Of a stretch of DNA of 11,306 nt, positions 4,993 through 7,474 are shown in pieces. The notes under the pieces are model-generated. The model was not told the origin of the DNA. It saw nothing but the letters and a program-made list of their open reading frames with translations, and did not search any database. Each line of letters starts with the position of its first letter. The first letter of the stretch is position 1. The position numbers and the translations under genes were made by a program. Source of the DNA: a virus; UHGV virus genome UHGV-1326493. One strand, given 5' to 3'.

Positions 4993-6051
4993 AATTTTGT
5001 CCCACTCCCTGCCTCTGTCATCACGATACTGTGATGCCATGGTGTCCGACTTATGCCCGAGAAGATGTTGAGCAAATTTATCGCTTATCTGCTTCTCATA
5101 GAGTCTTGCAGACAAACTGCGCAACTCGTGAAAGGTTGGCGGATCCCCTTCGAAGGAAAGACCTGATGCTTTTCGTGCGCGCATAAAATACCTTGATACT
5201 GTGCCGGATGAAAGCGGTTCACGACGAGTAGATGCAATTATGGTTTCTCCGCCAAGAATCTCTTTGCATTTACCAAGTGTTTCCTTCATTGATATCCCGA
5301 GAGCATCAACATGCAATGTTGTAGGGATGGCAATTTTTACGCCTGTTTTGCTTTGCTCGACATAAAGATATCCATCTACGATATCAGACCACTTCATTTC
5401 GCATAAATCACCAACTCTCTGCCCGGTAACAACAGCCAGTTCCATTGCAAGTCTGAGCCAACATGGTGATGATTCTGCTGCTTGATAAATTTTCAGGTAT
5501 TCGTCAGCCGTAAGTCTTGATCTCCTTACCTCTGATTTTGCTGCGCGAGTGGCAGCGACCGGGTTTGTTGTTATATGGCCTTCAGCTATTGCCTCTCGGA
5601 ATGCATCGCTCAGTGTTGATCTGATTAACTTGGCTGACGCCGCCTTGCCCTCGTCTATGTATCCATTGAGCATTGCTGCAATTTCTTTTGTGGTGATGTC
5701 TTCAAGTGGAGCATCAGGCAGACCCCTCCTTATTGCTTTAATTTTGCTCATGTAATTTATGAGTGTCTTCTGCTTGATTCCTCTGTTGGCGAGGATTTTT
5801 TCGTAGCGATCAAGCCATGAATGTAACGTAACAGAATTATCACTGTTGATTCTCGCTGTCAGAGGCTTGTGTTTGTGTCCTGAAAATAACTCAATGTTGG
5901 CCTGTATAGCTTCAGTGATTGCTATCCTCCTGTCTCGGCCTAATCCAAACTCTTTACCCGTCCTTGGGTCCCTGTAGCAGTAATATCCATTGTTTCTTAT
6001 ATAAAGATTAGGGGGTAAATCCCGGTGCTCATGACTTCGCCTTCTTCCCAT
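4981..6051 (-). CDS. int: tyrosine integrase, lambda Int type, 356 aa
   Basis: MGRRRSHEHRDLPPNLYIRNNGYYCYRDPRTGKEFGLGRDRRIAITEAIQANIELF...HELRSLSARLYEKQISDKFAQHLLGHKSDTMASQYRDDRGREWDKIEIK is near-identical to lambda Int as I recall it. R-x-x-R, H-x-x-R, H and the Y in ...MASQYRDD are intact. Overlaps xis by 23 nt. Confidence 0.97.
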   Translation of the reverse strand: MGRRRSHEHRDLPPNLYIRNNGYYCYRDPRTGKEFGLGRDRRIAITEAIQANIELFSGHKHKPLTARINSDNSVTLHSWLDRYEKILANRGIKQKTLINYMSKIKAIRRGLPDAPLEDITTKEIAAMLNGYIDEGKAASAKLIRSTLSDAFREAIAEGHITTNPVAATRAAKSEVRRSRLTADEYLKIYQAAESSPCWLRLAMELAVVTGQRVGDLCEMKWSDIVDGYLYVEQSKTGVKIAIPTTLHVDALGISMKETLGKCKEILGGETIIASTRREPLSSGTVSRYFMRARKASGLSFEGDPPTFHELRSLSARLYEKQISDKFAQHLLGHKSDTMASQYRDDRGREWDKIEIK

Positions 6052-6247
6052 TTTTGATCCTCTTCAAAAGGCTACCTGTTACTGGTCGATTTAAGTCAAC
6101 CTTTACCGCTGATTCGTGGAACAGATACTCTCTTCCATCCTTAACCGGAGGAGGGAATATCCTGCACTCGCGTACCCATCGACGAACTGTTTCAAGGCTT
6201 CTTGGGCGTCGCTGGCGTGCGTTCCACTCCTGAAGTGTCAAGTACAT
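6029..6247 (-). CDS. xis: excisionase, lambda Xis type, 72 aa
   Basis: MYLTLQEWNARQRRPRSLETVRRWVRECRIFPPPVKDGREYLFHESAVKVDLNRP...KKAKS matches lambda Xis. Has the characteristic overlap with the int start. Confidence 0.95.
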   Translation of the reverse strand: MYLTLQEWNARQRRPRSLETVRRWVRECRIFPPPVKDGREYLFHESAVKVDLNRPVTGSLLKRIKNGKKAKS

Positions 6248-6270
6248 CGCAAAGTCTCCGCAATTACACG

Positions 6271-6297
6271 CAAGAAAAAGCCGCCATCAGGCGGCTT
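6271..6297 (-). terminator. hairpin plus T-run on the leftward strand between the 55-aa ORF and xis
   Basis: Minus strand: AAGCCGCC / loop TGAT / GGCGGCTT then TTTCTTG. The stop codon (TGA) of the upstream 55-aa ORF lies in the loop. Confidence 0.4.
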
Positions 6298-6454
6298 GGT
6301 GTTCTTTCAGTTCTTCAATTCGAATATTGGTTACGTCTGCATGTGCTATCTGCGCCCACAGCATCCAGTGGTCATAGCAGTCGTTGATGTTCTCTGCTTC
6401 GATAACTCTGTTGAATGGTTCTCCATTCCATTCACCTGTGACTTGGAAGTGCAT
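6287..6454 (-). CDS. hypothetical protein, 55 aa (not in the track; below its length cutoff)
   Basis: ATG at plus 6452-6454 (complement) is preceded by GGAG at 7-nt spacing. Translation MHFQVTGEWNGEPFNRVIEAENINDCYDHWMLWAQIAHADVTNIRIEELKEHQAA, stop TGA at 6287-6289. Co-directional with the operon. Confidence 0.45.
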   Translation of the reverse strand: MHFQVTGEWNGEPFNRVIEAENINDCYDHWMLWAQIAHADVTNIRIEELKEHQAA

Positions 6455-6526
6455 TTATCATCTCCATAAAACAAAACTCGCCGTAGCGAGTTCAGATAAA
6501 AGAAATCCCCGCGAGTGCGAGGATTG

Positions 6527-6811
6527 TTATTCATTGTCGATATTTACCTTTATCGCGAACACCTTTACCGGTTTATCGCTAAAGTGAGGATGTGTGATTG
6601 TCTTGATTTCATATCCGCCATACGGGACGTCTATTTTGCGACTGGAATCGTCGCGCTTCGGATATCCCCTTGTGATAATCAGGCGGTCATACTCCCGGAA
6701 CATAATTCGCTTATTCCAGTAGTTATTACACAGGCGATACTCTTCCGTTTTCTCGCCTGACTTCATCTGGTCGAAATATTCACCGTTAACTGCCAGTTGA
6801 AGGTTAGCCAC
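6527..6811 (-). CDS. hypothetical protein, possible ASCH/PUA-like beta-barrel (about 94 aa)
   Basis: GTG start (plus 6809-6811) with GGAGG 6 nt upstream; it overlaps the upstream stop as GTGGCTAA. Product ...AVNGEYFDQMKSGEKTEEYRLCNNYWNKRIMFREYDRLIITRGYPKRDD... resembles the EYF..v.sG.KT.E.R opening of ASCH-type domains (weak, from memory). The track's longer form 6527..6883 adds a hydrophobic leader overlapping the upstream gene in another frame. Confidence 0.5.
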   Translation of the reverse strand: MANLQLAVNGEYFDQMKSGEKTEEYRLCNNYWNKRIMFREYDRLIITRGYPKRDDSSRKIDVPYGGYEIKTITHPHFSDKPVKVFAIKVNIDNE

Positions 6812-7094
6812 GGTTAACCTCCAGTTGTGGTGCTGCCTCAAGAGCAGCCCTGTAACCAGCAGCATGACCGCGAAAGTTAGCAATTTCTGATAGCCACGCT
6901 TTAATCATGTCCTGAGTTGGTTCCTTCGGCACCATAACCCAACCATCCGGAGTTACCGGAGAGTTGCCAGCCTTGCGCATGGCAATCTCCACGATTTCAA
7001 CCATATCTCCTGGCGGAATTTTGCAATGCTGACCAAAGCGCCTCTGCTGTCTGGCATATTCGAGGATGTGCTCCAGCTTGGTACGATTAATCAT
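6804..7094 (-). CDS. hypothetical protein, 96 aa
   Basis: ATG at 7094 with AAGGGAGA upstream; ATGA start/stop overlap with the upstream gene. No recognisable domain. Confidence 0.6.
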   Translation of the reverse strand: MINRTKLEHILEYARQQRRFGQHCKIPPGDMVEIVEIAMRKAGNSPVTPDGWVMVPKEPTQDMIKAWLSEIANFRGHAAGYRAALEAAPQLEVNRG

Positions 7095-7474
7095 GATTTA
7101 TCTCCCTTAAGCATGGCGGCGCGGCAGGAGTTCCAGCCTCTCACCTCTGCAATAGCGGCAACAGCATCGACCGCGTACATTTTAAGAGGGTTAGGCATTG
7201 GTTTTTCTTCAGGTACTACTGGCACTGGAGGGGCGGCATAAACAGGAATAACGTCCGATTGATCTTTATTGCTTTCATCCGTTAAAGCCCAGAATAATTT
7301 CCCGGCCGGATGTTTGAAAATATAAGCAACTGGTTCTGCTTCCAGCGATGCCTGTGCGATACGAAACACATTGGCAAGCAGGCTGTCTGTAGATTGGTTA
7401 TCGTGCGCCGGGTCGCTCAGGAAACCAGTGATGAATGATTTAATTTCCGCGTTTTCTCTGGTAATAGTGGTCAT
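7091..7474 (-). CDS. hypothetical protein, 127 aa
   Basis: ATG at 7474 with AAGGA upstream; ATGA overlap with the upstream gene. No recognisable domain. Confidence 0.6.
   Translation of the reverse strand: MTTITRENAEIKSFITGFLSDPAHDNQSTDSLLANVFRIAQASLEAEPVAYIFKHPAGKLFWALTDESNKDQSDVIPVYAAPPVPVVPEEKPMPNPLKMYAVDAVAAIAEVRGWNSCRAAMLKGDKS

Follow-up and report, generated by a model that had tools for sequence, protein, structure and literature searches.

A lambda orf55 homolog with its stop codon in the loop of a putative t'I-type terminator upstream of xis in a lambdoid phage genome

The window, which is the whole 11,306-nucleotide stretch of virus genome UHGV-1326493 analysed here, shows the organisation of a mosaic lambdoid/P22-like temperate phage, with a tailspike gene and lambda-type int and xis genes. 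Its int, xis, Ea22-like and abc2-region genes are on the strand of the frame studied here, in a layout as in lambda. Between a gene encoding an ASCH-like protein and xis, the ORF listing and the translation of the window show a frame of 55 codons plus TGA, which starts with ATG and is preceded at 7 nt by a GGAG Shine-Dalgarno sequence (6465-6462) read from the sequence. Its translation, MHFQVTGEWNGEPFNRVIEAENINDCYDHWMLWAQIAHADVTNIRIEELKEHQAA, is exactly the one given by a previous sequence-only reading, whose coordinates and GGAG spacing also agree with ours. The region contains the following features:

6029 to 6247, minus strand: xis, encoding a lambda-type excisionase (Pfam Exc PF07825, E 7.6e-41).
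6260 to 6273, minus strand: putative cII-binding repeat TTGC-N6-TTGC, -35 region of pI, TTGCGTGTAATTGC (homology to OL657226).
6272 to 6297, minus strand: predicted intrinsic terminator in the t'I slot, with the hairpin at 6278-6297 and the T-run at 6272-6277 (terminator scan, fold, 434 annotation).
6287 to 6454, minus strand: orf55 CDS (53/55 to lambda/434, PHROG 676, dN/dS about 0.1, AF2 pLDDT 90.5).
6462 to 6465, minus strand: Shine-Dalgarno sequence GGAG (sequence; RBS at the same site in phage 434 record OL657226; kept in Klebsiella-type homologs).
6474 to 6493, minus strand: second terminator-like hairpin of 8 bp, then TTTTGTTTT (terminator scan; it ends 8 nt before the orf55 Shine-Dalgarno sequence).
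6504 to 6525, minus strand: tL4-type terminator hairpin of 9 bp and T-run (terminator scan; position of 434 t-L4 and HK022 tL4).
6527 to 6811, minus strand: ASCH-like upstream neighbour (RefSeq 'ASCH domain'; sub-threshold in Pfam).

The frame encodes an acidic 6.5-kDa protein with a pI of about 4.7, containing 10 D/E vs three K/R residues. Its length is unremarkable: 86 ORFs in the window reach 40 amino acids or more, and a 55-codon open frame by itself is within chance expectation. The protein is identical in 53 of its 55 residues to lambdap35 of lambda ('orf55'; NP_597778, NC_001416 29118..29285 complement, with the record remark 'predicted by GeneMark') and, also in 53 of 55, to ORF55 of phage 434 (int-xis record M60848, AAA67903), the two substitutions being R4Q and I32L. 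It matches PHROG 676, whose function is unassigned, over positions 1-55 of 55 (E 3e-39), and RefSeq annotates an identical CDS, WP_000545737.1, as a hypothetical protein beside an 'ASCH domain-containing protein'. The gene is named orf55 in the literature, where it closes the 'exo-xis region' as its final ORF (PMC3824215; PMC8614690). The sequence-only reading was right in placing a small gene between the ASCH-like gene and xis, and the homology search that it proposed finds a conserved one; its description of the ORF as unlisted holds only for a size-limited track, since the records of lambda (lambdap35), 434 (ORF55) and RefSeq annotate it, so it had not been overlooked. The feature is already known as a lambda orf55 homolog with a t'I-type terminator, and labelling the ORF and the hairpin in this way is routine annotation. 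Scans of the protein against Pfam, NCBIfam and PADLOC gave no match (in Pfam, none at E<=1), nor did an Rfam scan over the whole window. Sequence-profile matches in the PDB to nitrite reductase were rejected as chance, resting on a shared 'F.VTGEWN' string.

Among the complete genomes of E. coli, 2700 of 5426 match the 271-nt orf55 region, and in 2181 of these the match covers at least 80%. When 1.84 billion representative proteins were searched exhaustively with a profile, just 53 Orf55 clusters were obtained. A word-indexed profile search, with an alignment including remote homologs, shows members in Escherichia, Klebsiella, Yersinia, Pectobacterium, Citrobacter, Leclercia, Pantoea, Erwinia, Cedecea, Enterobacter and Proteus, and all the members that it lists are named 'hypothetical'. 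The family is restricted to temperate phages and prophages of Enterobacterales. Apparent homologs in Shewanella, Pseudomonas, Bradyrhizobium, Kitasatospora, Oceanobacillus, Enterococcus and others (L005-L022) were discarded as contamination of assemblies with lambda control DNA and indicate no real spread beyond Enterobacterales, because they are 96% identical to the query, as lambda is, and are found on ~48.4-48.5 kb or tiny low-coverage contigs. Lambda itself and about half of the complete E. coli genomes carry the gene.

Downstream of the coding sequence, the hairpin at 6297-6278 (minus strand) shows a stem of 8 bp, AAGCCGCC/GGCGGCTT, with six GC pairs, and a loop of 4 nt, followed by the tail TTTTTCTT. 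A consensus scan reports it as a minus-strand terminator, its stem, loop and U-tract are those of an intrinsic terminator, and its RNA fold reaches -17.6 kcal/mol (z = -3.4 vs shuffles). The stop codon TGA (6289-6287, minus strand) is inside the loop TGAT, as had been noticed from the sequence; the span of 6271-6297 given then for the hairpin corresponds to the hairpin plus the T-run. The 5' arm, GCC GCC, encodes the C-terminal Ala-Ala of Orf55, within a disordered tail. Records of phage 434 annotate t'-I, also as 'terminator PMID:6305007', 25-48 nt upstream of xis, which is the distance of the window hairpin; by position, 6272-6297 would thus be the t'I terminator of 434, and termination here is a prediction supported by these GenBank annotations. 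The slot is alike in lambda, 434 and the window: the same place relative to xis and the cII box, and a hairpin and T-run on the leftward strand. The T-run is directly adjoined by TTGCGTGTAATTGC (6273-6260), followed by the xis ATG at 6247. This stretch is common to all xis-anchored loci and identical to the one annotated as cII site and pI -35 in OL657226, and it was assigned by homology as a putative cII site and pI -35.

Upstream, the tL4-type hairpin begins 1 nt after the TAA of the ASCH-like gene, and the tandem hairpins (6525-6504 and 6493-6474) together reach -25 kcal/mol (z -6.6). The hairpin at 6474-6493 is identical in lambda-type relatives. The 434 record M60848 shows t-L4 44-74 nt upstream of ORF55, and the HK022 record X51962 likewise annotates a 'tL4 terminator'. 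The ASCH-like gene scores E 0.035 and 15.2 bits against Pfam ASCH, below the gathering cutoff of 21.2. The ea8.5, ASCH-like and DUF551 genes (lambda, window 6525-6529, L108 and L109) all end ...TAACAATCCTCGC, with their stop 1 nt before the tL4 hairpin, and the cassette boundaries there consist of a stop codon and a terminator. A promoter scan of 5800-7200 found no sigma70-like promoter on either strand, and only about 50 nt, occupied by the two hairpins, precede the orf55 Shine-Dalgarno sequence. The gene was also considered as a moron, an autonomous promoter-gene-terminator cassette, and rejected for lack of its own promoter.

The orf55 genes of lambda and 434 and that of the window are alike in length, Shine-Dalgarno sequence, upstream tL4-type hairpins and stop-in-loop terminator, and xis is the neighbour in both lambda and the window. 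The upstream gene is ASCH-like in the window and ea8.5 in lambda, and the window hairpin shows a G-C pair where lambda has G-U. In phage 434, ORF55 and xis are separated by ORF114, and the hairpin of ORF55 has a mismatch.

Two collections of viral contigs were available. The first 80 contigs, the best by protein identity, contain 39 distinct DNA sequences encoding nearly one single protein; they are biased to synonymous-only variants and were left out of the selection tests, which used Klebsiella-type homologs with DNA and 80 viral contigs picked by Xis similarity, a choice unbiased for orf55. The Klebsiella-type homologs show 73-76% amino-acid identity to Orf55 and the Shine-Dalgarno sequences AGGAG or TGGAG. 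Between E. coli-type and Klebsiella-type genes, pS is 0.68-0.86 (saturated), dN is about 0.19 and dN/dS is 0.08-0.11, so the codon-substitution analysis suggested in the sequence-only reading points to purifying selection. The xis-anchored sample of 80 contigs contains 30 with an intact 55-aa frame, one, HK022, with a 1-nt deletion just past the ATG and an upstream ATG in frame (MEMINAFRVTG...), 17 with only the last 39-52 nt of orf55 and the hairpin, and 32 with no trace of the gene. Frameshifts or stops in related phages, named beforehand as evidence against the frame, are not what the relatives show: the frame survives, and the sole indel, that of HK022, is rescued. Variable sites in the 17 distinct intact alleles are distributed 13/3/13 by codon position, with 13 synonymous and 18 non-synonymous codon changes over 31 synonymous and 134 non-synonymous sites. 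Remote homologs, with 38-55% identity, retain W9, N10, F14, E19, E21, D22, D25 and W33.

These data bear on the possibility that the frame is a non-functional by-product and that the terminators alone matter. The gene is dispensable, since 32 of the 80 lambda-type xis contigs show no trace of it and 17 show a 3' remnant alone, these 17 keeping the hairpin without the rest, and some terminator always fills the slot upstream of xis. Against this, dN/dS is about 0.1 with saturated dS, second codon positions are poor in variation, the Shine-Dalgarno sequence is conserved, the AF2 model reaches a pLDDT of 90.5, and family members can be recognised across Enterobacterales at identities as low as 38%. 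The by-product reading has a negligible probability and is refuted in practice by the substitution pattern. Because of its conservation, its substitution pattern and its confident fold, orf55 is a real, dispensable accessory protein-coding gene, under strong purifying selection as estimated against the Klebsiella-type homologs.

In HK022 (L160 1822-2025; also L002), the ATG of the 'ATGGAG' Shine-Dalgarno region comes in frame and gives MEMINAFRVTGEWNG..., with no obvious Shine-Dalgarno sequence of its own. The 17 remnant contigs are L117, L118, L120, L124, L127, L152, L155, L156, L161, L162, L164, L165, L167, L177, L179, L182 and L189; in them the start codon is missing and other sequence is fused upstream, with recombination junctions recurring around codons 39-44. 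An antisense frame at 6116..6469 (plus strand; 117 aa, GTG start), spanning the xis start and all of orf55, was set aside as a probable by-product of codon usage: it stays open because the sense gene has no TTA, CTA or TCA codons, the common P0024-type allele interrupts it with a stop, and its divergence is faster than that of the sense protein.

In prophages of E. coli and Klebsiella, usually no more than one gene stands between orf55 and the integration module, which is of three types: a lambda-type Exc with an Arm-DNA-bind_1 integrase, a DUF1233 protein with an Arm-DNA-bind_2 integrase, and an AlpA-like 66-aa protein with a P4-type integrase. Remote homologs show other positions: P0106 is 20 nt after gene N; P0109 and P0122 are past the repressor region and before kilR/gamL/recT; P0152, of Proteus, is before recT; and P0105, of Yersinia, overlaps the adjacent genes and lies two genes ahead of a DUF4224 protein and an integrase. 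The orientation of orf55 is always that of N, kil, the recombination genes, xis and int. The gene constantly belongs to the leftward early operon but is not constantly next to xis, which argues against a recombination-specific role. In L194 and L195 (2639-3162), an orf55 homolog is located about 20-40 nt after N, with no terminator between them and a stop-in-loop hairpin after it; this homolog would come before the first leftward terminator and belong to the immediate-early transcript.

The sequence-only reading had taken the position of the ORF as a hint of a role in recombination or in host functions. As an accessory to Xis/Int, Orf55 would modulate site-specific recombination, and its gene is in fact directly upstream of xis in lambda, in the window and in many prophages. 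However, the excisionases that follow the gene come from three unrelated families and go with different integrases, the gene is missing or a remnant in 49 of the 80 lambda-type xis contigs, its remote homologs after N or before kilR/gamL/recT are far from any xis, and in 434 ORF114 separates it from xis. The recombination hint is contradicted by these data, and we consider such an accessory role very improbable; a role in host functions is plausible.

The AlphaFold2 model of Orf55, obtained from a 19-sequence alignment with a pLDDT of 90.5, shows a beta-beta-alpha-beta fold: strands at 2-9 and 12-19, a helix at 23-37 and a strand at 41-49, with residues 53-55 disordered. A Foldseek search of the PDB gives first T7 Gp2 in a holoenzyme complex (E 0.038, TM about 0.6) and second the RNAP epsilon subunit YkzG, no match in the PDB reaching E 1e-3, and a fold search of BFVD gives only E >= 0.014. 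The fold neighbours, all weak matches, include T7 Gp2, RNAP epsilon, the UDG inhibitor p56, AcrIE2 and Dmd.

Lambda Orf55 has been modelled as a possible Gp2-like RNAP modulator (PMC8614690), and Donaldson and co-workers (2021) proposed that it inhibits or modulates host RNAP as T7 Gp2 does, binding the beta' jaw and sigma70 region 1.1. Both Gp2 (PDB 2WNM, 4LK0) and Orf55 are small, acidic, early phage proteins, and the predicted topology of Orf55 resembles the beta-beta-alpha-beta one of Gp2. They differ in that T7 is a lytic phage with its own polymerase and the phage of Orf55 is temperate, and the fold match is below significance. No sequence or profile homology to Gp2 was found, the hhalign probability of Orf55 vs Gp2 being 1.6%. 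The essential arginines of Gp2, R56 and R58 of beta3, which contact the beta' jaw, have N43 and R45 as equivalents in Orf55 (PMC8614690), and remote members have V, E, H, N or D in place of R45. The arginine pair is not conserved, R45 being its sole counterpart and variable in the wider family. The Gp2 analogy is weak, and we regard a Gp2-like action on RNAP as unlikely.

Variable early accessory genes commonly encode anti-defence or DNA-mimic-type inhibitors. Orf55 might likewise inhibit a restriction system, a nuclease, a glycosylase, a toxin or another defence protein; the evidence for this is wholly circumstantial, the same fold neighbours are equally weak for it, PADLOC (which models defence, not anti-defence) gave no match, and no co-varying defence system was identified. 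This we hold to be doubtful.

The passage of PMC9239242 that cites Sergueev 2002 implicates the lambda segment orf73-ea22-ea8.5-orf55 in blocking the initiation of host replication. Two-hybrid screens assigned no partner to proteins of the exo-xis region except Orf63 and Ea8.5, and a CRISPRi essentiality map of lambda left out lambdap35 for lack of a PAM. The most likely class for Orf55, with low certainty, is a small protein that binds or inhibits a host protein in trans, because of its fold neighbours and of the replication-block report as given in PMC9239242; the candidate targets, which we do not rank, may be RNAP, the host replication initiation machinery, or a defence or DNA-binding protein. 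The options are narrowed to the extent that the protein is real, has no tie to recombination and bears a weak analogy to Gp2. What remains of interest is the function of a very widespread lambda gene, and the conserved overlap of its stop codon with a terminator.

We propose, as the probable explanation, that orf55 of lambdoid phages is a genuine accessory coding gene that closes the leftward early (pL) operon, its cassette being the final one ahead of the integration module; with low certainty, its protein would act in trans as a small binder or inhibitor of a host protein early after infection or induction. The gene is bracketed by predicted terminators, the tL4-type tandem pair on its upstream side and the t'I-type one on its downstream side. 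From what is known of lambda, orf55 would have no promoter of its own and would be expressed from pL once N-modified RNAP reads through tL4, and t'I would halt unmodified polymerase before pI-xis-int. Since the hairpin loop contains the stop codon, a ribosome close behind the polymerase may mask the 5' arm of the hairpin, and termination would then be less efficient on transcripts under active translation; t'I would terminate mainly polymerases without a closely following ribosome. N-modified polymerase ignores terminators such as t'I in lambda.

The overlap of stop codon and terminator is found beyond the window. The end of the orf55 T-run is the exact junction with at least six different downstream contexts, and the hairpin is part of the orf55 cassette, not of xis. 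It is kept where ORF114 follows (L107, -13.2 kcal/mol); in phage 434 a mismatch weakens it, and in L104, with another small ORF downstream, it has decayed. The slot upstream of lambda-type xis shows three non-homologous hairpins, all joined at the T-run/cII box, which places the mosaic boundary inside the terminator, and only the lambda/window type overlaps the orf55 stop. The hairpin types at that slot (window 6248-6297 and L114-L193) are the orf55 type, the 434 type GCCGCAT-CA-ATGCGGC and the GGAGC-TTCG-GCTCC type. The GCC GCC stop-in-loop hairpin accompanies orf55 through changes of genomic position, as shown by the 3' ends of its homologs:

Klebsiella homologs: GAA GCC GCC CAC/AAC TGA GGCGG-T5-7.
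P0122: GAA GCC GCC TAA CCA GCGGC-T5.
P0109: ATG GCC GCC TAA CAA GCGGC-T6.
P0106: ACT GCC TAA CTG GCGG, a weaker hairpin.

The layout persists in homologs to about 45% identity, and this one descriptive point may be new; it is not universal, the hairpin being absent from the Yersinia and Proteus homologs. In the 16 hairpin variants of the E. coli type, 96% of cells are paired, and one position shows G-C, G-U and A-U, never A-C. Covariation among the E. coli-type alleles is not significant: no pair is changed on both sides relative to the commonest pair, and shuffles equal the observed score. The boundary between gene, terminator and promoter is compact and offers a possible setting for translation-dependent termination. 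Experiments in E. coli showed that a terminator a few bases past a gene is almost fully repressed by the translating ribosome (PMC4824070). As in the tR2 position series of that study, the window hairpin starts before the stop codon, so that the terminating ribosome must cover it; the series is an E. coli experiment, whereas the window shows a natural phage arrangement with a predicted effect and with N antitermination on top.

The gene might instead act mainly in cis, its translation up to the stop in the loop gating read-through into pI-xis-int or other cassettes and its peptide being unimportant. This agrees with a stop-in-loop geometry kept in several diverged lineages, with the nearly full repression by ribosomes of terminators within a few bases of a stop in E. 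coli (PMC4824070), and with a weaker hairpin in the 434-type and L104 alleles, where another ORF follows. However, the whole amino-acid sequence is under purifying selection (dN/dS about 0.1) and has a confident fold, unlike a spacer ORF; the Yersinia and Proteus homologs do without the hairpin; and, as known for lambda, the terminator is in any case overridden by N antitermination during the phage life cycle. A role mainly in cis is quite improbable in our estimation, and action of the protein in trans remains the preferred reading. A bolder reading, unlikely as we see it, would make the stop-in-loop hairpin a conserved functional device by which termination depends on orf55 translation. If true, a ribosome-coupled polymerase would read into xis/int or other cassettes without N, and an uncoupled polymerase would stop. 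A separate possibility, also unlikely, is that Orf55 is a Gp2/epsilon-like RNAP ligand of temperate phages.

Three chimeric proteins containing parts of Orf55 were also observed: P0100 shows an ASCH N-terminus joined to Orf55 residues 9-55, P0103 shows an Ea22-like N-terminus joined to residues 18-55, and in P0097 the stop codon is lost and Orf55 is read through into an AlpA-like excisionase.
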